From contig NC_081374.1 in NCBI RefSeq assembly GCF_030684315.1, positions 12,016,837-12,080,836 of the forward strand: 64,000 bases of DNA, given 5' to 3'. Shown in pieces: positions 3,613 through 54,688 of this stretch. Position 1 is the first letter of the stretch. Each line of letters opens with the position of its first letter. Under the pieces are notes generated by a model, which saw nothing but the letters and a program-made list of their open reading frames with translations, did no database searches and had not been told where the DNA came from. A program made the position numbers and the translations under genes. The DNA comes from Stegostoma tigrinum. Taxonomy: Eukaryota.

Positions 3613-3829
3613 GGCTGTCCATACTTGTGAAGTTGAGATGTGAAAAAAATGCTTCTACATTTGTTGCACGCTTTGATGTTCATTGTGAATTGACACTGTA
3701 AGAAAAATATGTGAATATTTTCAAGGGGGACGTGTGACAGAAATCCATGAATGTACAAAGAGACAAAGTGTTAATTATTTCCATCTGCACATTGGAGTTT
3801 GGTGTGTCAATGGAATGACAGATAGAAAT

Positions 3830-6035: not shown

Positions 6036-6072
6036 ATGTGGACTTTGATTCTTCTGATTTGTTCCATTCCCG
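6036..6072 (+). other. Duplicated exon 1 (leader), distal copy; orphan or alternative first exon
   Basis: Identical to 30671..30707 including the GTGAGT donor; the following intron is cut at 7245. Confidence 0.88.
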
Positions 6073-18353: not shown

Positions 18354-18390
18354 ATGTGGACTTTGATTCTTCTGATTTGTTCCATTCCCG
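18354..18390 (+). other. Duplicated exon 1 (leader), middle copy; orphan or alternative first exon
   Basis: Identical to 30671..30707 including the donor; the following intron is cut at 19563. Confidence 0.88.
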
Positions 18391-21300: not shown

Positions 21301-24300
21301 GCACTGGGCCTCACTAATGCAAGTGTATCCAGCCCAGGGATTACAGAGGGCTCAGTTTGGGAGCTTGGAGATATAAGTTACTGTACTGGGCCACTTTTAT
21401 TGGAACTCTCCTGCCGAGTCAGTCCACATTGTTGTGGGAGTAGGCGATGACTTAATTGGGAATGGATTTATCAGGGCCAAGTCTATGGAAGCCAGAGGGA
21501 AATGATCAAATCAAGTCTGGGCTAGGCTCGATTGGACTGTGTCATTGAGAGAATGATGACAGTGAGTAAAGGCAGTTCAAGTTAAAAGAGTATTACAAGT
21601 GTAAAATAGACAGAGTAGGATTTCCGGTCATCACAATTACATGCCTACAGTCAGAAGATGTTCTTCCAGCTTGAAGACATGAAAATCTTACAGTATTAGA
21701 CAGGATGTACATTGTATGTTTGGGTAATAAAATCATGTCCATCAAGTCATATAGTCATAAAATGCAAAGTTAGATCCTCCAGTCCAACTCGTCCCCCTCA
21801 AACACACATCCCAATCTGACCTGGTCCCATTTGTCAGCTTTGGCCCCACATACCTCCAAACCTCTCCTACTCACATACCCATCCAGATGCCTTTTATATG
21901 CTGTAATTGTATCAGCATTCACCACTTTGTCTGGCAGCTCATTGCTTAAATGCACTACCCACTGTGTGAAAAGGTTACTCCTCAGTTATTTTGTTAAATC
22001 TTTTCCCATTCACCTTTGACCGCTGCCCTTTGTTTGTGGACTCCCACATCAGGGAAAAAGACCCGGGCTATTCAGCCTGTCCAAGCCCTCATTTCAATTA
22101 GTTTATTTCCGATAGACATGTGTAATAATGTGGAATGTAGACAATGTGAATACTGTTGGGTACCGGTACGGGTGAGCTCATATCTAACAGTTTGTTTTGG
22201 ATATTATTATTTACAGAAAGCATTGTACGGAAGCTCGTTAGTTGTATGAATCAGATAAAGTCTTGTTGCCATTTGAAAGATGTGATCTGCTTGTCATTTT
22301 TTCATATATACAGCTTCAATGCCTGCATTAGTAAATATTTAAACAAAGAAACCTGACTCTGCTCCTGTCCAAAGAGGAAATTCCACATAAGATCACCCTT
22401 TTGGGGGGCTCTCATAGAACATCGGAAGTGCCAGAGAGCAGCAGGAGGTGAGGTTTTCCCAGGTCACTGTCACTTTAGCCTGTACTTGGTGTGGGTTCAG
22501 GGCCAATAAGGACACTGAATTGTAGGCCTGAGAGGGGATAGTCTGCAATGTGCAAGGGATCCTCTTCATTGCGAAGGAGATGCCTATCATAGTGACTTAC
22601 TGCCAGAATTCTACACCCCCAATAAATCTCAATGTCTTTGGTTGTGCAGATTACATTTGGATGAGGTTATACAGCTCGGACATTCTCACGGTGTTATGAC
22701 AGCGACAACAGTTGCCCTGAATTTTCTTGCCAATTTTCAAGGACCAACTGGACAGCTGTATGGCACCTCCAACTCTGACACACAAATGCAGACCAGCTGT
22801 CTCTGCTGCCGTTTTCTCCAGATCACATCTGCTCATATGTTTCCCCGAGCTGTGACACAGATAGTATCTCCGTCCAGGAAGGGGAATATTCCACCACCAC
22901 TGGCTTCCCCCAGGGACAGGATACTATAAGCTGCACCCACACTGCTTTCAGAATGTCCCCAGCACTAACTTGCAAATCTCAACAACAGGAAAGACTCCAC
23001 CTCCATCAAGGCACACGTTGGGTGTAACCATCGATGCCAGGTTTTGGAGGTGGGTCATTGATATCCTGGGGGCTCCCACAATGTGCAGATAGTCGAGCGG
23101 TCACTGGGTCCTGCTTCTTCCCAATATTCTCAGGACATACAGGAATGGCTGCTGGGAGACAGGAAGAGCCCTCCTGAAACTTGGCTGATGGCATTTTTAT
23201 CAAACCCATAGACTGATACAGTATGAAGATATAATGCTGCTCCTGCTTCCACCAGGGCCACTGTGGAACAGACCATAGGGCTCGTTAAGATGGGGTTTTG
23301 ATGCCTAGAATTCTTCAGCGTGACCTTGCAGCTTTGCCCAGAATGTCTCCCCCATCAGTATGGCTGCTGGGGCCCTCACAGATGGAGCTGACAAAGATTG
23401 TTGGAGGGGGGCAGTGGGATGTCCCACATCCAGGTGAAATGGGGTGGGGGTCATATTCGGGCTCACTGTCACTGACTGGAACTTCTGCAGTGGCTCTGCA
23501 TCCCAGGCAGGAAGGAAATGGAGAGACCAGACATCACTGGAGTGTCCTGAGGAGAAACATCGAGGGATTTTCTGTGAGGGTCCTCCTCTCTATGGGTGCC
23601 TCCTGACACCATCCTGTCACTTTGAGAGGAAGGGGAACCTGGAGTGATGTCAATAGCCACGTCACACTCTCACCTCCTCAGTGACGCTGAACACCCACGG
23701 CCTCAGCAATGGAGTGTCGGTCCGTGTTCATATCCAGCAGACACTGAGTGGACTGGACCTGAGTCTGAGAGACACCCGCCCACCTCTCCAAGGGGATGGT
23801 CAGACACATCGCCTGGGACTGATAGTGTTGGCTTATTCCTCCATTCTTTGTTCCAGTTTAACAGCTGCCCCTGACATACCTACCTGCTGTGCTTGTGCCC
23901 GTCAGTGCATGTTCACAAAGTCAGTAAGATTAAAGCTGACAATTCTGAAGATTGAAACCATTGTCTTTGGTCACACCACATAGAACATAGAACGTAACAG
24001 CGCAGTACAGGTCATTCGGCTCTCAATGTTTCACCGGCCTATGAAACCAATCTGAAGCCGAACTAGCCTACACTATTCCATTATTATCCATATATTTATC
24101 CAATGACCATTTAGATGCCCTTAAAGTTGGCGAGTCTATTACAGTTGCAGGCTGGGCATTACACGCCCTTACTTCTTTCTGAGCAAAGAACCTACCTCTG
24201 ACATCAGTCCTGTAGCTACCACCCCTCAATTCAAAGCTATGTCCCCTTGTGCTAGACATCACCATCAGAGGAAAAAGCCACTCACTGTCCCCCTATCTAA

Positions 24301-27300
24301 TCCTCTGATCATCTTATATATCTCTATTAAGTCTCCGCTTAACCTTCTTCTCTCCAATGAAAACAACCTCAAGCCCCTCAACCTTTCCTCATAGGACATT
24401 CACTCCATACCAAGCAACATCCTCTGCACCCTTTCCAATGCTTCCACATCCTTCCTATAATGCGGCGACCAGAACTGTAAGCAATATTCCAGTGTAGCCG
24501 CATCAGAGTTTTATGCAGCTGCAACATTACCTCATGGCTCAGAAACTCAATCCCTCTACCAATAAAACTTAGTACATCATACACCTTCCTAACCACCCGA
24601 TCAACCAGGGTGGCAACTTTCAGGGATCTATGCACATGGACACCAAGATCTCTCTGCTCATCTGCACTACCAAGAATCTTACCATTAGCCCAGGACTCTG
24701 TATTCCTGTTACTCCTTCCAAAGTGAATCACCTCACACTTTTCTGCATTCAACTCCATTTGCCACCTCTCAGCCCAGCTCTGCAGCTTATCTACATCTCT
24801 CTGTCATCTGCAACGTCCTTCCACACTATCCACAACTCCACTGACTTTAGTATCATCCGCAAATTTACTAACCCATCCTTCTACACCCTCATCCAGGTCA
24901 TTTATAAAAATGACAAACAGCAGTGGCCCCAAAACAGATCCTTGTGGTATACCAGAAACTGAACTCCAGGATGAACATTTCCCATCAACCACTACCCTCT
25001 GACTTAGAACATAGAACATAGAAAAGTACAGCACAGTACAGGCCCTTTGGCCCACGATGTTGTGCCGTGGAATAATCCTAATCCAAAAGTAAAATAACCT
25101 CACCTACATTCCCCTCAATTCACTGCAGTCCATGTGCATGTCCAGCAGTCGCTGAAATGTCACTAATGACTCCGCTTCCATGACTACCACTGGCAAACTA
25201 TTCCATGCGCTCACAACACTCTGGGTGAAGAACCTCCCTCTGACATCTCTTCTATACCTTCCAACTAATACCTTAACACTATGACCCCTCATGGCAGTCA
25301 ATCCTGCCCCGGGGAAAAGTCTCTGGCTATCAACTCTATCCATGCCTCTCATTACCTCGTACACCTCGATCAGGTCACCTCTCTTCCTCCTTCTCTGCAG
25401 AGAGAAAAGTCCGAGCTCAGTCAACCTCTCCTCGTAAGACAAGCCCTCCAGTCCAGGCAGCCTCCTGGTAAACCTCTTTTGCACCCTCTCCATAGCCTCC
25501 ACATCTTTCCTGTAATAGGGCGACCAGAACTGGACACAATATTCCAAGTGTGGTCTCAACAGATTTTGTAGAGCTGCAGCATAAACACGCGGCTCTTAAA
25601 CTTGATCCCCTTGTCAATGAAATTCAAAACACCGTCTGCTTTCTTAACAACCTTATCCACCTGGGTGGCAACTAGGCTGACTGGTCTGTAATTTCCAGGG
25701 ATTTCCCTATTCCCTCTCTTGAAAAGAGGAACAACGTTTGCCTCCCTCCAATCTTCTGGTATGACTCCCGTGGAGAGTGAGGAAGCAAAGATCTTTGGCA
25801 GTGGCTGAGCAAACTCTTTTCTTGCTTCCTGGAGAAACCTAGGATAAATCTGGTCTAGCCCTGGGGACTCATCAATCTTAATGTTCACTAAAATTTCCAG
25901 CACATCACCTTCCTCAGTCATGATCTGTTCAAGCCTGTCTTCCTGCTCCTCAAAGTTCTCATTCACAACAAGGTCCCTTTCCTTCGTGAAAACCAAAGAA
26001 AATAATTCATTTAGGGCTTCCCCTATCTGCTCAGACTCCATGCTCAAGTTCCCTATGCTATCCCTGATTGGCCCTACCTTCTCCCTGATCATTCTCTTAT
26101 TCCTCACGTATGAGTAAAATGCCTTCGGGTTCTCCCTCATCCTTCCTGCCAAGCCTTTTTCGTGTCCCCTCCTGGCCCTCCTCATTCCACTTTTGAGCTC
26201 CTTCCGAGCAAGCCTGTAATCCTCCAAAGCTGTGCTAGACCCTTACTTCCTCCACCTTATGTAAACTGCCTTTTACTTTTTGACGAGAAGCACTTCTGTA
26301 CCCGTCATCCAAGGCTCCTTAATCTTACCCCTTCTTACCTGTCTCAGAAGAACAAATTTATACATCACTCGCAACAACTGCTCCTTAAACAGTCTCCGCA
26401 TGTCTGTTGTGCCCCTTCTGTGGAACAACTGCTCCCAATCTGTACTTCCCAACTCCTGCCTGATAGCGTCATAATTTCCTTTTCCCCAGTTAAATATCTT
26501 CCCCTGGTAACTGCTCCTTTCCTTTTCCATGTCTTCTTGCAGCTAGCCAATTTCTGATTCAAACCGCTAAATCACCCTCAATCCCATGCCTCTGTATTCA
26601 ATCACCTTTCCTTAGCCACTGACTCCATCCATCTCCCTGTTCAACAGAGCCCTCATCCGACATGTTTTGAGTTCCACACTCAGTCATTCCCATACCATCC
26701 AAGCTGGACTTAAACCTTCCACCATACATCAACTTAATCTCATCCAAATCTTTCCTCCAACTTTACATCTTTAAAGGTACGATAGAAATGCAAGTTACCT
26801 TGTTTGCAAACATTGATAGGGCAAGATTTTTTTTAATGTGCAAACCAGCCTACTGGATCTAGAAAGATGTGAATCCATACTGCGCGGAAGAACAAATTGA
26901 AATATTGTCCCAGACATTAAAATTCAAATTAATTTGAATTGAAATGAACAGATTGAAATTCAAATTAAAACCTGACATTTTTAAAATAGCTTTCATTCCA
27001 ACATTACATTATTTATAAAAATGCTTCTGTCTACAGCAAGCTACGTGTAAATGGCTCATTCTCATTGAAACCGCATTCAGTTTGGGCCCAGTCCATTAAA
27101 TCCTCAACTAGAATCATGGTCATTGAGAAGTGTGAATGAGAATTACACAATTCCTACAGTGCAGAAAGAGGCCATTGGGCCCATCAGGGCTTCACTATCT
27201 CTGTCAAGAGCATCCCACCAGACTGAGAATTCCACTCAAGATAACAAAGTGTGGAGCTGGATGAACACAGCAGGCCAAGCAGCACCTCAGGAGCACCAAA

Positions 27301-30300
27301 GCTGACATTTCGGGCCTAGACCCTTCATCAGAAAAGGGGGATGGGGAGAGGATTCTGAAATAAATAGGGAGAGAGAGGGAGGCAGATCTAAGATGGACTG
27401 AGGAGAAGATAGGTGGAGAGGAGAGTATGGGTCGGGAGGTAGGGAGGGGATAGGTCAGTACACGGAGAACGGACAGGTCAAGGGGACGGAATGAGGTTAG
27501 TAGGTGGGAAATGGAGGTGTGGCTTGAGGTGGCAGTAGGGGATAAGTGAGAGGAAGAACAGGTCAGGCAGACAGGGGCGAGCTGTGCTGGTTTTGAGATG
27601 CAGTGGGAGGAGGGGAGATTTTGAAGCTGGTGAAGTCGACATTGATACCATTGGGCTGCAGGGTTCCCAAGTGGAATATGAGTTGCTGTTCCTGCAACCT
27701 CCGGGTGGCATCATTATGGCACTGCAGGAGGCCCAGGATGGACATGTCGTCGAAGGAATGGGAGGGGGAGTTAAAACGGTTCGCGACTGGGAGGTGCAGT
27801 TGTTTACTGCGAACCGAGCGAGGGTGTTCTGCAAAGCGGTCCCCAAGCCTCCACTTGGTTTCCCCAATGTAGAAGAAGCCACACCGGGCACAGCAGATCC
27901 AGTATACTATATTGGCGGATGTGCATGTGAACATATGCTTGATGTGGAATGTCATCTTGGGGCCTGGGATGAGCATGAGGGAGGTGGTAGAATTCCGCTC
28001 TATTCCCTTAACCCTACATATCTAATGACTAACCCACCTGCACTACACAGCCTCTGAGCTCTCGGAAATTTGGCATGATCAATTCACAAACCTGCACATC
28101 AATGCAGCATCAGAGGAACCTGAAGCACCTTCTGGAAACCCATGCAGACACGGGCAGAATGTGCAAACTGCACAGTGTCTGACAAGGCTTCAGTTGAACC
28201 CAGGTCACTGAGTCTGTGAGGCAACAGTGTTAACCATTGAGACACTGGGCTGTCCATACTTGTGAAGTTGAGATGTGAAAAAAATGCTTCTACATTTGTT
28301 GCATGCTTTGATGTTCATTGTGAATTGACACTGTAAGAAAAATATGTGAATATTTTCAAGGGGGACGTGTGACAGAAATCCATGAATGTACAAAGAGACA
28401 AAGTGTTAATTATTTCCATCTGCACATTGGAGTTTGGTGTGTCAATGGAATGACAGAGAGAAATGATTCAGGCAGGTTGAACAGTAACATTTAAAAATCA
28501 TTCCGATAGATACATGGATGGGAGAGGTTTAGAGGGATATGGACGAAATGCCAGGAATTGGAACGAGCTGGGGATGCACCATGGTCAGTATGGACCAGTT
28601 TGTGCTGAAGGGCCAGTTTCCATGCTGCCTTCGTCTATGAATATAGAACTTTATTCTCAAGGGCTGGAAGAGGAATTATCGTTTAAACTGTGCTCTCAAC
28701 TGGAGCCATAGGTCTTACAGCTCAGAACATGTCTATGACAGAGTATTGTATCCGCTCAATGCTTCTGGGTTAAGAATTTTCCACACATTTCAGGCCTCAT
28801 CTCAACATCCTCCCCGACCCGAAAACCAATCCACCGGTTTTAATCAGGGCCTGCTAGACACCTGGGATTGGCCTCCTCTATCACTGGTAAAAGCCCCGAG
28901 CCTGTGGAGAAAGCCCTTTGGCAAACCACAAACCATACCTACAGGCATTGTAACGCTGTGCGGGCAGCCATTGCCTACAGCTCATTAAAGAGATAGAACT
29001 GGGTCACCTGCAGCAATATGTCTGCAGCTACTGACAAAAATGTTCCGTGGAGACACATTCTGGAAAGACAGGGAGGGGACAGTTTTCTTAGAGCCCACAT
29101 CACTGTTAATAAGCTGGACATTGTGGGTGGAGCACTCTTGTGTCATTCAAGGCTGTTCTGAGAGTTTTCAGAACGAGCCCTTTGCTCACCGTCTCTGAGA
29201 GGGTAACCTCCTGGGACAGGTTCGTGCACACATTGTGGTGTATCACTGCACAATTCCAGAGCAAATGGAATGTGTGTACTGATGACGGAGGGGTTTTGAG
29301 GCAGGTTCAGTTCATACAATGGTTTGTCTCAGAAAAGCAGGCTTTTGTCAACTGCCAAGTGCCCATCTCACGGGATATGGCTTTGAATCTGAGCATGTTT
29401 TAATACTGAGTGGCTTTTAAAAAGTGCCGGCTGCCCATCGACCAGAGCGTGGCATTAACACTGAGCAAGTCACTTCAGAGGATCTCTGGCAATTTGGTCA
29501 GACATTCTACACTTTGTTAAAAAGAGCTGCATTCCCTGTTTCATCACAGTCTAATGATAAGTCTCATTATATTTTTCCAGTTGTTTCTACAATGCCCATG
29601 TCATTCAGGGTCTGGCAGTTCCCTGCTCTCTATTTCTGACCCTCAGACACTGACAACCTAATGTCAGAGGGTTTCATCCACAATGATGTAATAACCCCCA
29701 AATGTTTCCAACTGTTCTACAGGAGATTACCCGATGTACTGTTTCTGTTTCCCAGACAGAGCATTGCGATGGTCCTCACTGGTTCAGTCTCTGGGTAACA
29801 ACTCCAGTGACTCTCCTTCTATATTAAACATTAAGGTGGGAGCACTGCCTTCAGCATTGTGGGTGGGGGTTAGCAGAGTTGGTGCAGGGTGTCAGCCCCT
29901 TTGACCTTCTCAAAGGTGAAACCCAATATGATTCACCAGGCTCACTCATCATCAACCACGTCCTGGGAACCACAAAGCCCCATGTCAGGCAGTTCACCAG
30001 AGGGAACCTCACCTTGGAATTGAACTCACCCCCCAGTTACTCAATCACAGCTCACTTCTCCCAGAATTGTCTCTCTGTCAGCAGAGACCTTTTTCTGCCT
30101 GAAATCAGCCTCATTACTTGCTTACTTGACTCTTATAGAAATGGAGCAGAGAGTGCCGATCTCTTGCAATCCAGGAGTTCACAATAATTGACACAATAAT
30201 TATTCTGCACTCTCAATAGGAGGCACATTCTGCAAACAAAAATTCAAAACAAATCAATGTTTAACTGCACGATGAATTTTCACACATAAATCTGCATTTG

Positions 30301-30512
30301 TCATAAACTGTTTGTTGGAATTTTCTAACATGGGAGAATTAGACAGTTTTCATTCACCTGAGAATTCAGTCTAAATACTGAGCTTCAGTCACTGCTATCT
30401 GTACAACTGACTCTTGAAATGTCGTGATTTCAGAAATTTTTTATTCATTCATTGAAAATTAGTTGAGTTCTTCTGTTAAGCATAGCTGACAGCACAAAAA
30501 TTTCTTCAGGGT

Positions 30513-30575
30513 TAATTTGCATCAAGTGACAGACTGTAGTTTCAGAAGTTGGCTTCCTATATCCTCTTCCTCATT
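30513..30575 (+). promoter_or_regulatory. Putative proximal promoter motifs: octamer ATTTGCAT (30515..30522) and Ets/PU.1-like GAGGAA on the - strand (30566..30575); copies at 5878..5940 and 18196..18258
   Basis: Exact octamer within TAATTTGCAT ~150 bp upstream of the ATG, plus two CTTCCT cores. Motif match only. Confidence 0.5.
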
Positions 30576-30670
30576 TACATTCTTGTAGACATTGTATTAC
30601 TCATTTACTTCAGTGTGAGAAACAAGAGCTGTGTGACTGACATCAAGAGCTGATCTTTGTGAATAAAACA

Positions 30671-30707
30671 ATGTGGACTTTGATTCTTCTGATTTGTTCC
30701 ATTCCCG
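30671..30707 (+). CDS. Exon 1, signal peptide MWTLILLICSIP (copy contiguous with the rest of the gene)
   Basis: ACAATGT start context, hydrophobic 12 codons plus G, strong donor G|GTGAGT, phase 1 typical of IgSF leader exons. Confidence 0.88.
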
Positions 30708-33700
30708 GTGAGTGACCATCTGAGTTGTTAATTTCAATAACTAATACTTATTAAAGTCTCCCGTCTGGTTTATACAGTATAGAGGTGTTTACATATTTGG
30801 AGACATGTAAAAAAACAAAGGAACATCATGTTGACACAGCAGGTAACATCTTTATTGCTGTGACAAATGCCTGAGAATTTGATTCATTCTCCAGCACATT
30901 CTCACAAACCCAAACAGGTTCATCATCAACCTGCAAATTCTTTCAATGTGCTCATGGCGGGGAGCAAGTGTGGATGAAATTCCAGGTCAGATTTATCCAG
31001 CGCAGTGTGTTTCCTCTCAAATACTGTCTCAGGACAGTAACCTTTTCCAGGAAGAACAAACTGCAGAAATCTGATGCACCATGTGCTTTACGAAAGCCTT
31101 TGAAGTTCAAATGAAAAATGTAAAAATACATGAACAACGTCAGGAAATATTATATCTTCTTCTGAATATATGATAATGTCATGGGACATAGTTAACAAAT
31201 ACTTTACAGCTGCATTAGTCATTATCAATAAAATGAAAAAGGAGAGCAGAACATTTTTTTATCGTGATTCAAACAGCATAAACAATTGAACTCATCCAAA
31301 ATTTTTCATTTTCAATATACACTGAAAACTGGTGTGGAAGTCAGCCTTCAAACAAAAGATCTTGGGTTTTGATTTCATTCTTTTTTTACTCTTATGACAA
31401 TTCATTAAATACTGTTTTGCAAGGTGCTGTCACAAAAGTAGGTGGTTGGATTATATATCTTCCCATAAAAAGCTTTTTTCCTTTCAGTCATTAACTTTAA
31501 CTGAGTTGCTGATGGTATATTTTGCCCTTCACTTACAACTTTAAAATCTATCACTGCAATAAAATTATTGTTCAGTATTGCCACTTCCCCTTCATTGATG
31601 ATCAAGCAAATTTGAAACACAAAATATTAAAATTCCAAGGGATGGAGCTCAATGAAGTGTTAGAGGAAAACCTTCTGCAACAGTTTGAGACTCAACCTCA
31701 TCAATTTCATGCAGAATACCTGACGGACAGTAAACTGAAGCGTGCCTCTGTGTGTTCAGAAATCCTCTTTGTTTCGAGGCTTCCTCTTTCCAATAAGAAC
31801 TCTAATCCATGACTTCCATCAGCTTTAACCATTTATGCATTTTCTACCTTTTGCATTTCCTTTCAACTGCCTCATTTATTTTAAAATCTTTTCTATCATT
31901 TCAGTCGAGAACTGTTCCCCACAGAAAGAACCTATCTCCCAAAAAGACTGATCGCCTCGTGTCTTTTGAAGTAAACTCTACCCAGTCATCAACAGGCTGT
32001 TCCCGTTCCACTCCAGGACACAATGTGACAGCAATTCAAACATTTTCTCATGAAGTATCTCTCCGGGACAATCAGTAAATTGCTTCTGTTATTTCACTCT
32101 GCTTTAAAATGACAACAATGTTTCATTACAGATAATCCTGACTTTCCTGCCCTCAAGTTTCTGCACGTTCCTCATACAGTGCGGAAACTGGCCATTCAGC
32201 CCAACAAGAAGTCACTACAATCCTCTGAAGACCATCCCACCCAGACCCATTACCTGACCCTATTACTGTAGGCCGGTGTTTCCCATGGCTCATGCATCTA
32301 ACCTCCTCATCCTTGAATATTATGGACACATTAACATGACTAATCCGCTGAACTTGCACCTTTTTGGACTGGTGGTTGAAACAGGAGGGACCAATGGAAA
32401 CCCATGCAGACATGGAGGGAATGTGCAAGCTTCACACACATTCGTGATCATCCAAGATTGGAAAAGGAACAGAGTCCCTGGCGCTGTGAGGCATCAGTGC
32501 AAACCACTGAGCCACTGTGTCACCAGTGATCAAGCTTCACACTGGTGAACCGTTTGTTGCGCAACTTCAAATCTCTTCATTATGTCCTTGAGGGCTTTCA
32601 TAACCTTCCTGTGTCACCTGTTGGATCTGCCCCTCACAACCTGAAAATTCAGCCCCTGTGCCCACCATGAGCCGACACACCAGCCCCCCCATCCCTCCCT
32701 GGCTGAAAGCCTCACTCTCTGGTCAGAACAAGGACACTCCAGACCCTGTAGCTTCCTTCACACTCATCCCCAGCTGACTCCAATCCAGGCCTGTCACTCA
32801 GACTGCTCTCCAGGACGGCAAGATCTCGATGATGCCACACACAATAGAGTTCAAGCCCACAGCGTGTAACAGAAGGCCAATTTCAAGATTGATCCAAAAC
32901 TCGACCAATGGGGAAACGCTGTTTAAATTATTCCCTGTGAATCTGGAAAACCCTGAGGGCCTGATAAAGGTTTATATTAATGATTACCTTCATCATAAAT
33001 TGGATAGAATGGAACTGATTACAATGTAACTGAAAATGAAAAGCACTTCTTTAGAAATTTCCAAATCTCTGAAATATTTTCTCCTCAGTTTCAGATGCTT
33101 TATGGGCAGAGAGATCCTTGACGGGAATTTTGGGAAGAGCGATCACAATACATTGCCACTATGAAGCACAGTGGTACCAGTCACACATTAAATATTGGTG
33201 TCACGGATGGACTCGTCAGTGTAATGTTATAGCAGCAACAAACTGGGCAAATGGGAGAATATCAATCACTGATAACAAAGCACAAGGAATATTTCTTGTT
33301 ACAATGAAGAACCTTCAATGGGGAGATGCAGGATGGTACAGCTGTGGGATTGACGCTCCAGGACTTGACCCAATGTTTTATGTACAGCTGCACATCTCAG
33401 AAGGTACATATGTCTCACTGATATTATTTCAATTTTTAATTCTGCTGATATCTCTGATCAAATCTTTATCCAGGAGACAAGATAACATAGTGTTGGAGGG
33501 TATTTGATTTTTTGATGGCAGCCGATTTCTCAACAATTGTTTCTTTCCCACAGAAGCTGTCTCTACTCCTAAACTTCAGTTTTTGTCACAACCAAATGTC
33601 TCATGTTCTGGGGGCTCGGTCACCATCTCCTGTGAATCTGCCCGGGGATCCCTCCCCATTCATTACACATGGTATGAGAGCTCATCTCAAAACTCAAAGA

Positions 33701-36700
33701 TCTCTGGCACCAATAAACTGGATCTACATTGTCAATCCTTCACACAGCAACATCATCAGTATTACTGCACAGCCTCAAATACTCAGGGAACAAAATCCAG
33801 TGAAATTGTTCATGTGTCAGTCAACAATGTAACAGAGAAGAACTGCAGTTACACTGTGAAAATCAAGAGCACCGGTAAGTGTGAAGCAAACAATGTGATT
33901 TTTTTTGCTGAATGTCCGTTCAAACTAGAGTCTTTTTGTCTCACTCTCTAAGGCTGTAATTATTAAAACTCACACTATTTTTTTTCATTGCCAGTTCTGA
34001 ACAAAACCATCGATCCGCATTGTCCTTCAAAAATGAGCAGGTACATAAAATATTCCCCACATCATGCATAAACACTGTGCAATCTCCAGTAATCCACAAA
34101 AATTAAAATAGTTTTAGATTGATGAACAATTTGAATTTTTCTATCAGATGCAATTATCAAACTCAGTGCATGACAGTTGTGTCCAGATTTTGGACACACT
34201 TCGGGTATGGATTGGAGATGAGTTGTACAAATGAAATATATGAAAGTATTGACTGCAGGCATTTCCTGATATACTCTCGTGTTTGAGCTGTCAGAGAAGG
34301 AGCAGGTCAGCATCAAGTAGCAATGATACACATAAACTGTATTTGTAACTATCAGCAGCGGCTCATGTGGCTGCTCTCTAACATTGGTCTCAAACATGCT
34401 GTGTGTTCATGTTCCCCTTCGGGGCTAAAATGCAAGTGGATACCACTGCCCAGCAGAGAGAGGGAATGCTGTGCTCTTGCAGCTGAGACAGTGTCCATGA
34501 GCTAATAAACTGAGAACCTGTTCACCCTTTGGGTATGGCATCATTTGTAAACTGTTTGCAGAATGGGGGTTTTCCTGATGTCGAAGCAAGCATTCATTCC
34601 TCAAACAATATTGCTAAAAACAGCCAGATTTTTGTCAGAATTACTTCAAAGCTTTTCGCTGCATTTAAATTAACTTCGACACATTGCTGCATTACAATGG
34701 TATGCTTGTTTCAACAAAGCACTTCATCAAATGTGAATTGTTTTGGGGTCTCCTCAGATCCTGTAAGGCACTATTTAGTTCATTAATGTCCTTTCAGGAA
34801 GGAAACATGCTGCTCTTTCCAGCTCTGGTCTGCATGTGACTCCAGCAATGTGCTTGCTTCTTAACTGCCCTCTTTAAAAGGCCTGACAGCCAATCAGTCA
34901 GGGGTAATTCAGAATGGGCAGCAAACACTTTCCAATAAAGTATAAACAATAAAAAATTTAACAATTTAGCTCTTGCAGAAATGGCTCACTTAAAATACAC
35001 TTAAGCCATGTTGTGTCTGTACTCCAGGGAGATGGGGAACCTCATTTGTCTGCCTCATGGACCCTAATACTTCAGCCAATGGGAAATCACTGGCAGGTTA
35101 TGTGTCTGTGGGGGGTTCACTTTATTCCTGACAGTTCAGAAAACTGACACTAAGAGAGTGGAATTAACCAAAGCCAACATCAGCAAATGGCAGCTCCATG
35201 TGAAACTCATGGTTTTAAACAATTCCGATACCTGTGTTGTAGTTTCCAGCCCAAACCCTTTAACAAACCCATTTCTAACACATCAACTCTCAGATTTGAG
35301 AAAGAAAGTCAACAAGATTGTCTGTGTGTGCAACCACAGAACATGGGAGAGATACTGATCCAAAGCTTTCACATCAGTTTTTACTGTGGAGTGCTTGGCA
35401 ATGAACCGGGCCAAGTGTCAGACCTGTTGGTCGGGGCATTTTGGCATAAGCGAACATAACTCTGTTACTTTTATAGTAGTCATGAAAAAGGATAGGCACA
35501 TAAAGCAGAGCTGGGTAACATAAAATGGGAACAGATGTTGTGAGGGAAGAACACGACTGAAATGTGGAGATTGGTCAAGAAATGCAGACTGTGTGCACTC
35601 AATATGTTTGTCCCTCTCAGGCAGGGAAGCTGCGGTGAGTGAGGGAGCCTTGGTTCTCAAGAGAGGTCGAATGACTGGTTAAGAGGAAGAAGGATGCTTA
35701 TGTAAGGTTTAGGAAAAGAGGAACGAAAAAGGCTCAGGAGGGATACAAGTTATCCAGGAAGGAGCTGAAGAAAGAGCACGGGAGAGCTATAAGGGGGCAT
35801 GAGGAAACCTCAGCAGTTAGGATCAAACAAACTCCAAAGATTTTTACACGTATGTGAGGAATAAGAGAATGACCAGAGTAAGATCAGGCCGATCAAGGAT
35901 TGTAAAGGGAATTTGTGTGCGGAGCCTGAAGAGACAGGAGAGGTACTTAATGAATACATTTCTTTGGTATTCACAACTGAGAGGGACCTAACTGTAGGGG
36001 AGAGCAGTGAGCAGCCTCAGGGGACTTCCCCTCCCCCGACTGCATCCCGAAGCCCAGCTCGTGCCCTCCCCCCCACTGCATTCCAAAGCCCAGCTCGTCC
36101 CCTGCCCCCCCACTGCATCCCAAAACCAGCCCAGCTCATCCCCGCCTGCCTAACCTGTTCTTCCTCTCACCTATCCCCTCCTCCCACCTCAAGCCGCACC
36201 ACCATTTCCTACCTACGAACCTCACCCCGCCCCCCTTGACCTGTCCATCTTCCCTGGACTGACCTATACCCTCCCTATCTCCCCACATATACTCTCCTCT
36301 CCACCTATCTTCTTTTCTCTCCATCTTCGGTCTGCCTCCCCCTCTCTCCCTATTTATTTCAGAACCCTCACCCCATCCTCCTCTCTGATGAAGGGTCTAG
36401 GCCCGAAACGTCAGTTTTTAAGCTCCTGAGATGCTGCTTGGCCTGCTGTGTTCATCCAGCTCCACACTTTGGTGTCTTGGATTCTCCAGCATCTGCAGTT
36501 CCCATTATGTCTGATCATGATATTCAAAGTAGTGCTCAGTTACAAGAGGTGTACTTCAACAATCTGTTCTGAGTCCTCTTCTATTTGTGATTTTGGTAAA
36601 TGATTTGGATGTTGGAGTGGAAGGGTGGATGAGTAAATTCACGAACGATGTAATGGTGGTTTGGGTTGTAGATAATGTGGAGGGATCTTCCAGGTTCCAA

Positions 36701-39700
36701 AGGGACTTTGATAGGATGCAGAGCTGGGCTGAGAAGTGGCAGATGGATTTTAACCCTGACAAGTGTGAGGTGATTCATTTTGAAAGGACAAATTTGAAAT
36801 CAGAATACAGGGTTAACGGAAAGATTCTTGGCAATGTGGAGGAGCAGAGAGATCTCAGGCTTCAGGTCCACAGTTCCCGTAAAGCTGCCACCCAGGTGGG
36901 TAGAGTTGTTAAGAAGGCGTATGGTATGTTCGCTTTCATTCATAGAGGGATTCAAGAGTTCAAGAGCCATTAAGCTGGGCTCCACCTGTACAAAACCCTC
37001 TTTCAGCTACATTTGGAGTATTGTGTCCAGTTCTGGTCGCCTCATTACAGGAAAGATGTGGAAGATTTGGAAAAGGTGCAGAGGAGATTTACCAGGATGT
37101 GACCTGGAATGAAGGGAAGGTCTTATGAGGAAAAGTTGAGAGAGCTAGGGCTTTTCTCTTTCAAAAGACGAAGAATGAGAGGTGACTTGATGAAAGTGTA
37201 TGAAATGATCAGAGGTATAGAAAGAGTGAACAGCCAGAGACTTTTTCCTCGGGTGAAGGCAGCTATTACGAGGGGCCATTTTTTTAAAGTGAGTGGAGGT
37301 AGATATAGGGGAGACGACAGAGGAAGGCCCTTTACTCAGAGTGTGGTGGGGGCCTACAATGCATTGCTGGAGAGGGTAGTGGAGTCAGCCTCATTTGGAG
37401 CATTTAAGCGGCAATTGGATAGGCATATGTATGATAGTATAAGGCAGGGGTCGAGGTTAGATGGGCCTGAGGTTTAGGGTAAAAGTTAGACACAGCACTG
37501 TGGGCCAATGGCCCTGTACTGTGCTGTACAGTTCTATGTACTATGTTCTCGAAACACACGGTTGTTGGGGAACTTGGGGATATAAATATTGATGGCTTGA
37601 TAACTGTCCACATTACAAAAGAGGAAGTGCTGAAGGTCTTAAAAAACACAAAGGTGAATAAATTGGTGGTCCCTGATTAAGCATGTCCCAGGATATTGTG
37701 GGAAGTTAGTGAAGAAATTGAGGGATCCCTTGTGGAGATATGTGTCTCATCCACAGTCACAGGTGCAGTGCCTGAGGACTGGAGGCTGGCTAATGATGAG
37801 CCTTTATTTAAGCAAGGCTATAATGGGAAGCGTGGGAACTATAGGCCTGTGAGCCTGGCATCAGTGACGGGTAAGTTGCTGGAGCGGATTCTGAGAGATA
37901 GGATTTATATGCAATTGAAGCGGGAAGGGCTGTTTAGGGTGAATCAGTATCACTTTGTGTGTGTGAAGTGTACCTTACAAACTTGTTTGAGATTTTTGAG
38001 AATGAAACCAACAAGATTGATGAGGACAGAGTAGTAGATGTTGTCTACATGGGCTTTAGTAACAAGGTTCCTCATGGTCAACTAATTAGTAAAGTTAGAT
38101 CTCATTGGATTGAGGGTGATCTTGCCAAATGGAACAAAATTGGTTTGACAGCAGGAGACAGGGTGTGGTGCTGGAGGGTTTATTTTGGACGGGAGGCCTG
38201 TGACCAGCGAAGTTGCACATGCATCAGTATAATTTAGGTCAACGATTTGGATGAGAATTTAGGAGGCAGGGTTAGAAAATTTTCAGGTGACACCAAAATT
38301 GGTGGTAAAGTCGACCATTAAGAAGAACATCTAAGATTACAAAGGGATCTTGATCAATTGGGCCAATGAGCTGAGGAGTGGCACACAGTTTTTAATTTTG
38401 AAAAATGTACGATATTACATTTTGGTAAAACAAATAAGGGCAGGACTTACGTAATTCTTGATAGTGGCCTGGGTAGTGTTGTCGAAATGAGAGATCTAGA
38501 AGTTCCGTTTGATAATTCTTTAAAATTTGCATCACAAGTAGACATGGTGGTTGAGATGGTATTTAACTGTTTTGCCTTCATTGCTCAGACCATTGAGTAC
38601 AGGATTTGGAACATCGTGTTGAGCTTGTACAGGATTTTGGTGAGGTTACTTTTGGTGTCCTGTGTACAGTTCTAGTCACCCTGCTGTAGGAAGGTAAATG
38701 TTATGTTGAAGCAGCTTCAGAAGAGATTTAACAGAATGTTACTAGAACTGGATGGTTTCAGTTATAAGAATAGATGAGAAAGGCTGGGGCTTTTTCCACA
38801 AGGCTTTTTTATAATTCATTTATTGGATGAGGGTGTCGCTGACCAGGAAGCATTTATTACCCATCTCTAAATGCTCCGAGGGCAGTTCAGAGTCAACCAC
38901 GTTGCTGTGGGTCTGGAGTCACATGTCGGCCTGAACAGATAAGGATGGCAGTTTGCTTCCCTAAAGGACGTTACTGAACCAGATGGGTTTTTCCTGACAA
39001 TCGACAATGGATTCAGAGTCATCATTAGACTCTTAATTCCAGATATTTATTCAATTCAAATTCCACCATTTGCAATGGCAGGATTTGAAGCCTCGTCCCT
39101 AGATCATAATCTGGGTCCCTGGATTAACAATCCAGCAATAATACCACAAGGGAATTGCCTCTCCCAGAGTGTAGGTTGAGTTGTAAATTTATAAAGGCTT
39201 ATAAAGTCATGAGGGGCATACATGAGATGAATAGCAAAGGTCTTTTTCCCGAGGATGGGGGAGTTCAATTGAGAGGGAATGTTTTTAAGATGAGAGAAGA
39301 AAGATTTAAAAGGGACCTGAGGGACAACTATTCACACAGGGGTTATTTCATGTGGGGACAGGGGCACAACTAATGAATGGACAGTTACAACAATTAAAAG
39401 ATGAAAAGGAAAGGTTTGGTAGGAAATGGGCCAAATGCAGACGAGTGGGACTAGTTCAATTTGAGAAACTTAGGCAACATTGACGTGTTGAACCAAAGGG
39501 TCTGTTTCCGTGCTGTATGACTCAATGACTCTGTAAAATTATCGGTAGAATTAGGTCATTTACAGGTGTCATTGTGATCAGAGAAGGGGAAATAATGATA
39601 TCACACAGGCTTTTTGTACAAGTAATGAGCTTCCATTTGTTCATGATGTTCTCTTGGATAATTACAAGTGAAAATGAGGTGAATTTGAACATCATTCCCT

Positions 39701-42700
39701 TCTTTCAACAGAACAGAGATATATTTGTAACATTTCTTCAACAATACCACCAACGACTACATATTCCCCAAATGCAAATCGAATTTCTTCTCCCAGTCAA
39801 ACTCCAACCTCAGCAGACAATCTGTCTGAAAGGTATGATGTTCTTTGTTTTGAATCCATGTTCGAAATTAACAACTTGTTCAACAATTTTGGCCAAACGA
39901 GTGAAAGTCATCTGTTATTTTGGAAATGAAAATGGTGCTGGGTTTATATCAGGCTGCTATGTTAGTTTTCATTGAAGGTCCAATTGTTTTTGAAAAGTAC
40001 AATTGGAGAACATACTTTCTATTTTGCTGACGTTCAGACTGCATTGCTCATCTTCATTACTTCACCATTAAACCACATGGAGTGTGATGCACTGTGCTTG
40101 CCAAACCTACCTTGCTGCTGTGTGTCCTGGAGTGTGATATCAGGGCAGGTTCATTCCTGCTGGTGAAAAGAAAGATTTGAGGTGATATATCTGCACAGTG
40201 ACAGGGAGCTTTCAGTGTAAGTCTTTCGCATCAACTCCAATTTCGCGTGGTGGCCCACAGCGCCAGGGACCCGGGTTCAATTTTACACCTGCGTAATTGT
40301 GTGTATGTAGTTTGCACATTCTCCCCTTGCGCGTGTGTGTTTCCTCTGTGTGCTCGGGTTTTCATTCCACAGTCCAAAGATGTGCACTTTAGGTGGATTG
40401 GCCTTGGCAAATACTTCTGATTGTACATGTATTTGTCGGCTATTTGGATTAGCCATGGGACATTGGGGAGGAGTGTTGCGTCTCTTTGGATGCTCTTTGG
40501 ACGGTCCATGAAGTCTTGATGGGCCGAATGGTCTGTTTCCACACTGTAGAGATTCTGTGATTCTATGATCTATATGTCAGTTGTGAAAATTTATGTAAAT
40601 AAAGATCATCAGAATCTAATATCCATTTTTGAAACTGTTGTTGCTGAGTTTCAATGGGCATCTGGTGCTGTTTTATTCCATTTTTACTCAGTCAAATTTA
40701 CTAACTTTAAAAAGGTTCAGTGGTGGTACGTTTACCTTCTTTCCCAACGGTTGTGAGCTCACTTCTCCTTCAGAGACTTGGGCACGTTATCAATGCTGAG
40801 CCCCCAGTGCAGTACTGAGAGAGTGCCACAATGTGGTGGCACTGCCTTCCCTCTGTGATCAATCCAGGCCCCAGCTGCCCCTCTCAGGGGAATGTGGTAG
40901 ATCTCTTGGCGAAATTCATAGAAGAGCAGGGCCATTCTCCGTGGAGACCTGGGCAATGTGTTCCCTTTACCAATTCCAAATTACATCTTCATACATCTAA
41001 TTATTGTTTCTGGGAGCATGCTATGAGCAAATTGAATACCATGTTTGCCATTGCAACATTTAATATAAGTATTACACTCCCTGCAGTACTTTCAGACGTC
41101 CTGAGGTGATGAAAGTCTTTCTTAATATATTTCTTGCATTAAATGGCCAAGAATCAATTGTGAACAAACACTTTTCTATTCTCTCTATCACAGTCTGATT
41201 TACATTGTACTCGGTGTGCTGGGGGCCATTCTGGTTGTTTTTGCTGTGTCTCTATTTTTGTACCTGAGGCAAATGGACAAGGGTGAGTTTTGATTTCTCT
41301 TCAATCATTTCATTGTATCCCAATAGCTTGCAATTGGATATAAATAGTGTATCAGAATTAGATCTTCTGATGGCTAGACAGCTGACATTCCAGTACAGTC
41401 AGGAGCTGCATGTGGAGACTCTGAAGATTCTCCATTGTAGCAGATACTGAAGGAATTCCCCAGAAGATTGAATGTTTATTTTTATTCATTCACGGGATGA
41501 GGGCATCACTGGCATTTATTGCCCATCCCTAATTTCCCAGAGAGCAGTTAAGAGTCAACCACATTGCTGTGGGACTGGAGTCACATGTAGGCCAGACCAG
41601 GTAAGGATAGCAGTTTCATTCCCTGAAGGACATTGGTAAATCTGATGGGTTTTTCCTGACAATCGATTCATGATCATTATTAGATTCATAATTCCAGATA
41701 TTTATTGAATTCAAATTCCACCATCTGCTACGGCAGGATTTGAACCTGGGATATCCAGAATATTATGTGGGTCTCTAGGTTTACAGTCCAGTGGCCATAC
41801 CACTAGGCCATCACCTTCCCAATAGACAATTCCTCAACACTTGGGCCATCCATTTATTTCAGAGAATGCCAATGAAATTAAGTAAAATTGTTATTCAGTG
41901 AAAGTAAAGTGAATAAGTACATGGCCTAACTTCTGAGTAACTATTCAGCTGACCCCGGACTTACATCATATGGTCTGAACTATACTTTCGCAAGACTCCT
42001 TACAGCCCTCACTCCCTTGTTGGGAATCATGGGTGCAATGGTGATGAATGTATTCCAGTACATATTCATACACACTGCAATTCATGTTCAGCTTAAAGAT
42101 TTTAAACATTGAACACTCTTGTTAAATTTGCTTGAATGATTGTATTTTGATGTTTCAGGTATATTCTGCATCATGCATCAACAAAGAGATAAGACTTTTA
42201 ATGATGACCTGGTAAGGATAATGAATATTAACTTGCTGAATACAGGTTAGAAAGTTGCAGAAAAGGGATTTACAGCACAGAAATTAGTAATTCAGTCCAG
42301 CTGTTGCTCTTATGCTCCACACAAGACTTCTCCCACTCCTCTTCATCAACGTCCAACTCCAGTCTTCTTTACATGTTTATTAAGTTATCTCTTAAATAAA
42401 ACAATACAACTTGACTCAACTCTTCCATTGGAAAGAAGTAGAGAATTCAGGAGAAAGCTTGTTATCTGAAAAGTGTCAAAATGTGGAACCTATTACCATG
42501 AGGGGTCCATGAGGCAAATAGAATAATTCCATGTAGAAGGGCAGCTGGATAAGCACATGAGTGTGAAATGAATACCATTTGTTGATGAGATTGGATGAAA
42601 ATGGGAGGAGGAGGCTCAGTAGGAGAATTACTACAGTACAGGTTTGAATTGTCTATTTTGCACTGTAAATAATTTTTAATATCTTCTGACACTGTATATA

Positions 42701-43102
42701 GATTAGTAATAATCATGAAATCACTTTCTCTTTGTAAAAGCACAAATCATGATTGAAGTGAATCAAAAATACATTTTTTTTCAATTTTAGGAATTGGCAT
42801 CAGTGGAAAAGAACATGGTATACGCAAACATAAACCACATTCAAACGAACACAGCAAACAGACAGAGAGAGAGAAGGGACAATCTGAAAAATGATGAAAT
42901 CATGTATTCAGCATTGGAATTTCAAAAGAAATCTTCATCAGTGAGAGGTGGGCTGGCAAGGCACACAGTTGACAACTCAAACAGTGTCATCTACAGTGAC
43001 CTCAATTTACCAAACCAGCCACTAAAGGGGAATAAGAAAGCCCCACGACTCATTCCTGCTCAGGGATCTGAAACGGCAGTTTATGCTGATATTGGAATTT
43101 AG
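30671..43102 (+). CDS. 7-exon inhibitory Ig-superfamily receptor, CD300/pIgR (CMRF35/MDIR)-like, 415 aa: join(30671..30707,33089..33403,33554..33874,39712..39832,41194..41282,42159..42211,42791..43102)
   Basis: Hand-spliced: six GT-AG introns with phases 1,1,1,2,1,0; total 1248 nt = 415 codons plus TAG, no internal stop. Domain order: signal peptide, IgV, IgC2, stalk, TM, Tyr-motif tail. Confidence 0.9.
32165..32522 (-). mobile_element. V-SINE in intron 1
   Basis: GGAAACCCATGCAGACATGGAGGGAATGTGCAAGCT core; ends in ..ccactgagccactgtg, like the other copies. Confidence 0.7.
33089..33403 (+). CDS. Exon 2, V-type Ig domain of the CD300/pIgR/TREM type
   Basis: Acceptor ttttctcctcag, donor G|GTACAT. 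Translation VSDALWAERSLTGILGRAITIHCHY..KYWCHGWTRQC..GRISITDN..FLVTMKNLQWGDAGWYSCG..ISE shows B-strand Cys, KYWC plus an extra Cys, and DxGxYxC. Confidence 0.93.
33554..33874 (+). CDS. Exon 3, C2-type Ig domain, FCRL/PECAM/allergin-like
   Basis: Acceptor ttctttcccacag, donor G|GTAAGT. Translation EAVSTPKL..GGSVTISCESARGSLPIHYTWY..QYYCTASN..KSSEIVHVSV; the CE-x-x-RGS-x-PI-x-Y motif resembles FCRL domains. Confidence 0.9.
35630..36010 (+). mobile_element. CR1 ORF2 fragment in intron 3
   Basis: FYTYVRNKRM and CAEPEETGEVLNEYISLVFTTERDL are homologous to the 919..1893 ORF. Confidence 0.8.
36011..36512 (+). mobile_element. Penelope-like terminal repeat fragment, with a ~35-bp unit repeated three times near its start
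   Basis: Reverse-complement similarity to 2603..3000; carries the hammerhead motif. Confidence 0.82.
36383..36414 (+). ncRNA. Minimal hammerhead ribozyme motif in a Penelope terminal repeat
   Basis: CT-CTGATGA-A-GGGT(CTAG)GCCC-GAAAC-GTC-AG: intact core, stem II, palindromic ACGT stem III and GUC cleavage triplet. Confidence 0.7.
36513..37548 (+). mobile_element. CR1 RT C-terminus and 3' end
   Basis: VNDLDVGVEGWMSKF, WAEKWQMDFNPDKCEVIHF and RRRMRGDL; tail ttctatgtactatgttct. Confidence 0.9.
37549..39533 (+). mobile_element. Older decayed CR1 ORF2 to 3' end, interrupted by a SINE
   Basis: VPEDWRLAN, GNYRPVSLASVTGKLLERILRD and VDVVYMGFS, with multiple stops and frameshifts. Confidence 0.85.
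38805..39155 (-). mobile_element. SINE of a second family; related copies at ~41478..41820 and ~54440..54572 (truncated)
   Basis: Shared core gggcagtt.agagtcaaccac.ttgctgtgggtctggagtcacatgt and B-box-like GGATTTGAA; the tail resembles the LINE end at 52300..52460. Confidence 0.7.
39712..39832 (+). CDS. Exon 4, Ser/Thr/Pro-rich stalk
   Basis: Acceptor ttcccttctttcaacag, donor AG|GTATGA. EQRYICNISSTIPPTTTYSPNANRISSPSQTPTSADNLSE; phase 1 in and phase 2 out fits both neighbours. Confidence 0.82.
40244..40565 (+). mobile_element. V-SINE
   Basis: gggacccgggttcaat B-box, gtttgcacattctcccc V-domain and a CR1-like tail. Confidence 0.78.
40720..41110 (+). mobile_element. Deu-domain SINE (AmnSINE1/SacSINE1-like); copy at ~53680..54070
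   Basis: ccagtgcagtactgagagagtg..ggccccagctgcccctctcagg..gaagagcaggg resembles the recalled Deu domain. Confidence 0.65.
41194..41282 (+). CDS. Exon 5, transmembrane segment without a charged residue
   Basis: Acceptor ttttctattctctctatcacag, donor G|GTGAGT. SLIYIVLGVLGAILVVFAVSLFLYLRQMDK. Confidence 0.9.
42159..42211 (+). CDS. Exon 6, short juxtamembrane cytoplasmic exon
   Basis: Acceptor tgtttcag, donor CTG|GTAAGG. GIFCIMHQQRDKTFNDDL; converts phase 1 to phase 0, as needed to reach exon 7 in frame. Confidence 0.8.
42791..43102 (+). CDS. Exon 7, cytoplasmic tail with MVYANI, IMYSAL, VIYSDL and AVYADI
   Basis: Acceptor tttttttcaattttag; in frame with ORF 42794..43102. IMYSAL and VIYSDL match the ITIM consensus (S/I/V/L)xYxx(I/V/L); the other two are ITIM-like. 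Confidence 0.9.
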   Translation, partial: ELASVEKNMVYANINHIQTNTANRQRERRDNLKNDEIMYSALEFQKKSSSVRGGLARHTVDNSNSVIYSDLNLPNQPLKGNKKAPRLIPAQGSETAVYADIGI

Positions 43103-53800: not shown

Positions 53801-54154
53801 CTGCCTTCCCTCTGTGATCAATCCAGGCCCCAGCTGCCCCTCTCAGGGGAATCTGGCAGATCTCTTGGCGAAATTCATAGAAGAGCTGGGCCATTCTCCG
53901 TGGAGACCTGGGCAATGCCTTTCCTTTACCAATTCCAAATTACGTCTTCATGCATCTCATTGCCGTTTATTGAAGCACGCTGTGAGCAAATTGAATACCA
54001 TGCTTGCTATTGCGACATTTAATATAAGTATTACACTCCCTGCAGTACTTTTGGATGCCCTGAGGTCATAAAAGTCTTTCTTCATATGTTTCTTGCATCA
54101 AATGGCCAAGAATTGTGAACAAACACTGTCCCTTTTCTATTCTCTCTATCACAG

Positions 54155-54243
54155 TCTGATTTACATTGTACTCGGTGTGCTGGGGGCCATTCTGGTTGTT
54201 TTTGCTGTGTCTCTACTTTTGTACCTGAGGCAAATGGACAAGG
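54155..54243 (+). pseudogene. Duplicated TM exon with intact splice sites; gene fragment or alternative exon
   Basis: One difference in 89 nt from 41194..41282 (F>L); acceptor and G|GTGAGT donor retained; no ectodomain exons recognised in this copy. Confidence 0.85.
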
Positions 54244-54569
54244 GTGAGTTTTGATTTCCCTTCAATCTTTTCATTATATCTCAAAAACTTGCAGTTGGAT
54301 ATAAAGAGTGTATCAGGATTGGACATTCTGATGCCTAGACAGCTGACATTCCAGTTCAGTCAGGAGCTGTATGTGGAGACTCTGAAGATTCTCCATTGTA
54401 GCAGATACTGAAGGAATTCCCTGGAAAATTGAATGTTCATTTTTATTCATTCACAGGATGAAGGCATCGCTGTCTAGACAGCAATTATTGCCCATCCCTA
54501 ATTGCCCAGAGGGCAGTTAAGAGTCAACCACATTGCTGTGGGTCTGAAGTCACATGTCAGCCAGATCAG

Positions 54570-54688
54570 GTATCATCTACAGTGACCTCAATTTACCAAA
54601 CCAGCCACTAAAGGGGAATAAGAAAGCCCCACGACTCATTCCTGCTCAGGGATCTGAAACGGTAGTTTATGCTGATATTGGAATTTAG
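54570..54688 (+). pseudogene. Duplicated, 5'-truncated tail exon (IIYSDL..VVYADIGI*)
   Basis: 54573..54688 matches 42987..43102 with one difference (A>V). The segment equivalent to 41604..42986 (exon 6 and the exon 7 acceptor) is missing. Confidence 0.8.

Follow-up and report, generated by a model that had tools for sequence, protein, structure and literature searches.

An MDIR2-type receptor gene of Stegostoma tigrinum, a likely inhibitory half of a paired receptor with a predicted phospholipid ligand

The closest described counterparts of the gene reported here are the MDIRs of skates, whose original description is reportedly that of Cannon et al. in 2006, and the CD300 receptors of mammals, in which inhibitory receptors are paired with activating relatives. 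MDIRs are characterised as activating and inhibitory multigene receptors resembling CD300, TREM, FCAR, and pIgR (PMC3031540). Here we examine a window of 64,000 nucleotides from the shark Stegostoma tigrinum (GCF_030684315.1, contig NC_081374.1, forward-strand positions 12,016,837 to 12,080,836), which contains at positions 30671 to 43102 an intact gene that, judged by its sequence, is an MDIR2-type member of this family. The encoded protein is likely to be the inhibitory partner in a receptor pair, and we predict that it binds the headgroups of phospholipids together with Ca2+ and recruits SH2 phosphatases.

The overall organisation of the window protein is highly similar to that of MDIR2 from the clearnose skate (416 residues, P0114), with 184 identities (44%, blastp E 1e-109) between residues 1–413 of the former and 1–410 of the latter. 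The two share their length and the order of their parts, namely a leader, a V domain (D1), a C2 domain (D2), a stalk, an uncharged transmembrane (TM) segment, and a tyrosine-bearing tail, as well as the motifs KYWCHGWTRQC and GLDP. Identities are distributed as 59/105 in D1, 61/107 in D2, 12/40 in the stalk, 15/30 in the TM segment, and 27/103 in the tail. Beyond the 44% identity, the proteins differ in that the window protein contains four tyrosine motifs, two of them canonical immunoreceptor tyrosine-based inhibitory motifs (ITIMs), compared with three and one respectively in MDIR2. A search with D1 returned 79 proteins, 77 of which are from sharks and rays, and a family profile search retrieved skate MDIR2, MDIR3, and MDIR5 by name. 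In phylogenetic trees, D1 and the V domains of skate MDIR2/3/5 share a starred clade (support 97/87), and D2 groups with their C2 domains (94/93), neither tree including mammalian CD300, pIgR, TREM, MILR1, C17orf99, or TMIGD3, and the D1 tree having two long branches.

Skate MDIR3 and MDIR5 and a chimaera protein named MDIR2 (P0082, P0095, P0277) contain the same V and C2 modules as the window gene, with MDIR3 bearing a tyrosine-containing tail and MDIR5 ending in an arginine-containing TM (Arg-TM) segment of the type seen in gene B, the twin of the window gene discussed below. In contrast to the single V-C2 unit of the window gene, the modules of MDIR3 and MDIR5 are repeated. In both trees the domains of sharks and those of skates fall into distinct subclades, the family expanding lineage by lineage, and the window gene is for this reason described as MDIR2-type with no claim to one-to-one orthology. 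The suggestion of the initial annotation that the gene may be an MDIR relative is thus borne out by the full-length alignment, and the window gene is, on this comparison, a further member of a receptor family known from skates. The same colinear match was named beforehand in that annotation as the outcome that would remove the novelty claimed for the receptor, and that novelty therefore falls.

The window gene is encoded on the forward strand by seven exons, with all six introns bounded by GT-AG and compatible in phase, yielding 1248 nt that translate to 415 residues and a stop. Exon 1 (30671..30707) supplies the ATG and leader peptide and ends in phase 1, as read from the spliced frame and from its junction with exon 2 in contigs of a relative. 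Exon 2 (33089..33403), placed by the frame, Pfam, and PDB alignments, encodes D1, a CD300/pIgR-type V domain with an extra CC' cysteine pair and a CD300lf-like aspartate in the third complementarity-determining region (CDR3). Exon 3 (33554..33874) encodes D2, an MDIR-type C2 domain with extra cysteines at domain positions 17, 59, and 97, supported by the frame, Pfam, the tree, and a structural model, and exon 4 (39712..39832) a Ser/Thr/Pro-rich stalk with a conserved cysteine at its start, evident from the frame and a homolog alignment. The spliced frame then gives the uncharged TM segment (exon 5, 41194..41282), a juxtamembrane cytoplasmic exon (exon 6, 42159..42211), and the cytoplasmic tail with Y323, Y351 (ITIM), Y380 (ITIM), and Y410, followed by the stop (exon 7, 42791..43102).

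Relatives of 408–417 residues in other shark and skate species are colinear with the window protein over their full length at 44–72% identity, with bamboo shark at 72% and horn shark and catshark both at 57%, which argues against a chance gene call. The 415-residue, seven-exon gene first proposed from the sequence stands at its original exon coordinates. The accompanying proposal to check all six introns by junction reads finds partial support, with the junction 30707 to 33089 (intron 1) seen in two of four runs and 33403 to 33554 (intron 2) in one of four, in each case in contigs of a relative or paralog ~94% alike whose RNA status is guessed. No RNA run listed as holding the exact window stretch was found.

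D1 is recognised as a Pfam V-set domain (E 1.8e-9) and contains the KYWC-x6-C motif, which aligns with C36 and C44 of CD300lf, the cysteines of the extra CC' disulfide. Amongst single-domain PDB entries the family profile matches CD300lf (105.8 bits), CD300LF (90.5 bits), and CD300A (79.8 bits) best, with isolated pIgR D1 constructs scoring 63.0 and 58.4 bits and FCMR 32 bits, so that the assignment to a CD300/pIgR-type V domain made at the outset is retained. The phosphocholine/Ca2+ site of CD300lf is described as involving C36-C44, Y34, Q41, R42, W89, K94, G96, D98, and M100 (PMC6166816). Seven of these ten pocket residues (Y34, C36, R42, C44, G96, D98, and M100) are identical in D1. Of the 232 V loops matched in the proteins from the D1 and family-profile searches, 146 carry the aspartate equivalent to D98, as do all 18 matched in bony-vertebrate V-C2 proteins. 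Furthermore, the CDR1 stretch of pIgR D1 (VNRH, an Ig-binding motif) is absent from the window D1 in the PDB alignments, and this absence together with the conserved pocket makes a lipid ligand likelier than an antibody. D1 may accordingly be matched to a phospholipid-type ligand, a prediction from residues for and against which we judge the chances to be evenly balanced, with the V domain envisaged to bind phospholipid headgroups with Ca2+; an immunoglobulin ligand for the receptor appears improbable. The earlier wording, Ig- or lipid-binding, is in this way narrowed towards its second half. The window receptor also resembles mammalian CD300lf and CD300A in combining an uncharged TM segment with ITIMs, and differs from them in pairing its V domain with a C2 domain, CD300 receptors having a single V domain and no C2.

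D2 matches Pfam Ig_3/Ig_2 and contains CESARGSLPIHY. Its top PDB sequence match is FCRL5 (E 5.6e-7 for one domain), with which it shares the CE..RGS.PI.Y motif of the membrane-proximal FCRL5 domains. When a search of 50% representatives was rescored per domain, with names looked up for 20 proteins, bony-vertebrate V-C2 proteins scored 54–63 bits against D2, compared with 41–45 bits at best for FCRL5 and 46 bits for a lungfish CD22/SMP-like protein, which is level with FCRL5. In a tree of 50 rows and 93 columns (at most two domains per protein, score of at least 25), whose FCRL rows are FCRL5-named or FCRL5-like mammalian domains only, the shark and bony-vertebrate C2 domains form one gnathostome-wide clade (98/95) approximately equally far from FCRL5 and CD22-like domains. 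The window D2 further differs from FCRL5 in its three extra conserved cysteines, kept in all 26 bony-type rows, one of which is an unnamed protein; across 54 other rows, position 17 is cysteine in 42, position 59 in 54, and position 97 in 51.

The structural model of D2 (predicted local distance difference test, pLDDT, 91.7) resembles CD22 (Z 8.9, root-mean-square deviation 2.6, 84 aligned) and FCRLA (Z 7.6, root-mean-square deviation 2.5, 78 aligned), that is, generic C2-type folds without a preference for FCRL. Foldseek returned nothing at E<=0.001 for this model, and FCRL5 is not among the 50 structure matches listed, which is evidence in neither direction; the complete protein of a skate homolog, folded in place of the window protein, reached a pLDDT of 48, and structural comparison with it was uninformative. 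With a clade of its own outside the FCRL domains and generic fold matches, the term FCRL-like used in the initial annotation holds as a description of resemblance and not of membership: the sequence match to FCRL5 was confirmed, the expected grouping with FCRL-like domains in a tree was not, and membership of FCRL was rejected. The probable role of D2 is that of a spacer stiffened by disulfides.

The TM segment, at about residues 265–289, is uncharged and is followed by an ITIM-type tail, in agreement with the first description of the protein. All four tail tyrosines described there are present; however, a strict ITIM pattern, [ILVS]xYxx[ILV], fits only Y351 and Y380, which lie 29 residues apart, with Y323 and Y410 off-pattern at the -2 position. 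At least two canonical ITIMs are found in 15 of the 17 single V-C2 homologs with long tails. The tandem Y351/Y380 ITIMs very probably recruit SHP-1/SHP-2, as far as motif and spacing can indicate, and recruitment of SH2 phosphatases would make the receptor an inhibitory ‘brake’.

The window gene belongs to a cluster at approximately 11.69–12.28 Mb of contig C25, with ~20 V exons, both TM types, V-C2 genes to the left, and V-only genes to the right, several V or C2 exons carrying stops. Both inhibitory (ITIM) and charged-TM forms occur, as in the skate MDIR multigene family. Gene B, an intact activating-type twin (C25:11999391-12010844), lies 6 kb before the window and 48 kb upstream of the window gene, with an open frame of 294 residues in which the V exon is identical to that of the window gene (312/312 nt) and the C2 and stalk exons nearly so (315/318 and 114/117 nt), ending in an Arg-TM segment and a short tail. 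Gene B is 97.9% alike to the window gene over 12,250 nt, up to window position 40412, and from ~170 nt before that point is 98.9% alike to the 3' end of a further gene, gene A. The likely crossover zone (40245..40412, in intron 4), before which gene B matches the window gene and after which it matches gene A, lies inside a repeat (40230-40570) with 40 blastn hits in 981 kb. An unequal crossover in intron 4 would explain this mosaic, and we think it probable from the pattern of identity that gene B was made by such an exchange between gene A and the window gene, which would have put the ectodomain of the window gene on the activating tail of gene A.

Human FCGR2C is an activating receptor born of unequal crossover, in which the exchange placed the ectodomain of an inhibitory gene on the tail of an activating gene, as in gene B. 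In contrast to gene B, FCGR2C belongs to another family, and the tail of gene B is an Arg-TM segment without an immunoreceptor tyrosine-based activation motif (ITAM) of its own. Two loci of the TCR_zetazeta family of adaptor TM segments are present in the genome, L144 (C14:34.32 Mb) and L145 (C59:9.57 Mb), the latter of which we take to resemble FcR-gamma. A 2014 report records no FcR-gamma, pIgR, or FCRL homologs in sharks (PMC4016189). Gene B carries the same V domain as the window gene on what is likely an activating Arg-TM tail, an ‘accelerator’, and it seems rather likely to couple to, and signal through, an ITAM adaptor of the FcR-gamma/CD3-zeta type.

Ectodomains and tails in the cluster have separate histories, as another inhibitory gene, encoded on the minus strand, matches the window gene in its TM segment (86/87) and tail (308/309) with a C2 exon only 86% alike, and the C2 exons of gene A are 97% alike. 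In the D1 and D2 trees, inhibitory and activating ectodomains group by species and not by signalling type.

Several features of the locus invite other explanations. The highest summed PDB scores are those of multi-domain pIgR for D1 and FCRL5 for D2, as might be expected of an inhibitory Fc receptor that corresponds in sharks to FCMR/pIgR or FCRL5 and binds IgM, IgW, or IgNAR through D1 or D2. The human FCMR-PIGR-FCAMR genes are flanked by IL10 and C1orf116 (1q32), and the cluster shares its contig with both; however, IL10 (17.94 Mb) and SARG (C1orf116, 18.68 Mb) lie 5.7 and 6.4 Mb from the cluster (11.7–12.3 Mb), which does not sit between them as the human genes do. With the VNRH stretch of pIgR missing from D1, FCMR at 32 bits against 106 for CD300lf, and D2 outside the FCRL clade, an Fc receptor is an unlikely reading, and a pIgR orthologue was rejected on the missing CDR1 motif and the position of the cluster. 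A single long multi-domain receptor is suggested by RefSeq model P0001 (Stegostoma tigrinum, 1304 residues), the C-terminal part of which is exactly residues 13–415 of the window protein joined to upstream copies, and MDIR3 and MDIR5 are natural multi-module forms. However, P0001 also takes in an internal TM segment, a second leader, and intergenic sequence, and the window gene starts from a separate leader exon and keeps its frame intact, with single V-C2 homologs of 408–417 residues in other species. The fused model was therefore rejected and the seven-exon model is more plausible; that the locus encodes one long receptor, or that the window gene is a recent silent duplicate, is highly improbable. 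P0014 and other long RefSeq models from the D1 search also contain internal TM segments or leaders and look like fused adjacent genes.

The ligand might instead be a pathogen or a polymorphic protein, with a decoy striking the inhibitory receptor and the activating twin serving as counter-measure, as in other paired receptors. Rapid birth and death in the cluster, the exons with stops, the grouping of ectodomains by species, and the identical V exon of the twin would all suit this explanation, and a virus exploits the lipid pocket of CD300lf (PMC6166816). These observations are nonetheless compatible with a lipid self-ligand, the two not being mutually exclusive, and we regard a ligand of this kind as possible though rather doubtful. 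An MDIR2-type inhibitory receptor for phospholipid, set beside its likely activating twin, is the reading we prefer and hold to be fairly probable, and several points weigh against it. Three of the ten pocket positions differ (W89 to Ser, Q41 a gap or Thr, and K94 to Pro, K94 supplying a backbone carbonyl in CD300lf), the CC' loop of D1 is one residue shorter than in CD300lf, and the aspartate is missing from 82 of the 232 family V loops, so that the family is not uniformly of the lipid type. Additionally, MDIR2 itself has only one canonical ITIM by the same pattern and lacks the Y323 motif, junction support comes from contigs of a relative and covers introns 1 and 2 only, the tandem units and gene B are known from one assembly, and the ligand and signalling role of the window gene are predictions from sequence.

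The remainder of the window and cluster records repeated duplication. Three tandem units of 12.3 kb (1..31880, forward strand), 98.6–99.3% alike, each span the upstream region and the leader exon and extend 1.2 kb into intron 1, giving two identical orphan leader exons (6036..6072 and 18354..18390, forward strand) that keep the GT donor. These could act as extra first exons of the window gene, or the tandem units could be assembly duplicates. Intron 3 (window 35.6–39.4 kb) and the tandem units are filled by listed open reading frames that are presumably decayed LINE-type (long interspersed nuclear element) reverse transcriptase fragments. A partial 3' duplicate (53480..55077, forward strand) retains an intact TM exon (54155-54243) and the last 39 tail codons, without ectodomain, a deletion having taken exon 6 and most of the tail, and duplicated sequence downstream of it extends to ~62.6 kb. 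The V-only genes (L011-L017 and L020, C25:12.09-12.28 Mb) are 30–42% alike to D1, two of them being followed by Arg-TM exons, and two V exons 4.6 kb apart in this region may together encode a receptor with two V domains, comparable to the pIgR or CD300-like proteins of teleosts.

The V-C2 combination is also found in 25 named proteins from 24 bony-vertebrate species, comprising ray-finned fish, newts, a caecilian, a spadefoot, a turtle, and a gharial, and it is therefore not an elasmobranch oddity; a shark-specific domain fusion was rejected. Of these proteins 18 end in an Arg-Trp TM segment like the shark activating forms and none of the 25 has a multi-ITIM tail. The branching of their C2 domains mirrors that of the species, and the V domains join those of the MDIRs in an unstarred group (91/89). 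None was from birds or mammals among the 39 matches of a V-C2 search that was word-limited and seeded with activating forms, which makes this a weak negative. These sequences support an origin of the V-C2 module before sharks and bony fish diverged. The proteins concerned (P0270, P0260, P0243, P0287, P0296, and others) represent a V-C2 receptor, so far uncharacterised, whose Arg-Trp TM segment is conserved from fish to turtle, under automatic names that vary widely.

To the left of the cluster lie a G-alpha-t and a G-alpha-i gene and to the right AHCYL1, a glutathione S-transferase (GST), and AMP deaminase, recognised from 36 candidate flank exons, hand-picked from 340 scored and run against Pfam, with 13 matching and 23 not. 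For AHCYL1 alone did the scores tell paralogs apart (58.5 against 49.2 bits); the top PDB match of the G-alpha-t exon is GNAT3, and from context we infer the gene to be GNAT2. TTYH2 and SLC9A3R1 neighbour the human CD300 locus (17q25), and matches to Tweety and EBP50_C, amongst which paralogs were not told apart, all lie on C26 and C27 with none on C25. TMIGD3 presumably contains a CD300-like domain. In the human genome GNAI3, GNAT2, AMPD2, GSTM, and AHCYL1 lie together at 1p13.3, with TMIGD3 further along, according to Table 1 of PMC9394163. By these matches the cluster is surrounded by genes that belong to the human 1p13.3 block. Past the G-alpha pair lies an exon of the CCD48 family (L093:9383-9541, C25:11.55 Mb), which does not appear in the 1p13.3 list consulted in PMC9394163. 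A literature search for MDIR returned PMC3031540 only, with most subscription papers outside its scope, and is hence no proof of being unpublished; the synteny and bony-vertebrate points may already stand in Cannon 2006, the Cannon 2010 review, or Flowers 2021.

Whilst the window gene itself is unexceptional within a family known since 2006 and its added value is modest, the analysis contributes a gene model that corrects the RefSeq fusion of several genes, a test pair in which one V domain is found on an inhibitory and on an activating tail, a residue-level prediction of CD300lf-like lipid binding by MDIR2-type receptors, and evidence for a V-C2 module older than the split between sharks and bony fish. 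Tentatively, and at less than even odds, these observations can be joined in a reading in which V-C2 would be an ancestral jawed-vertebrate Ca2+/phospholipid sensor. Ray-finned fish, amphibians, turtles, and crocodilians would have retained it as an uncharacterised gene of activating type, with none found in birds or mammals, and in sharks it would have multiplied into paired receptors whose activating twins are regenerated by FCGR2C-style crossover. The cluster, with its 1p13.3 genes on the chromosome of IL10 and C1orf116, would then represent the ancestral locus of the pIgR/FCMR/FCAMR and TMIGD3 V domains. If the synteny reading is true, the pIgR/CD300-type V-domain families would have one ancestral locus, and an unstudied, conserved receptor would exist in fish, amphibians, and reptiles.

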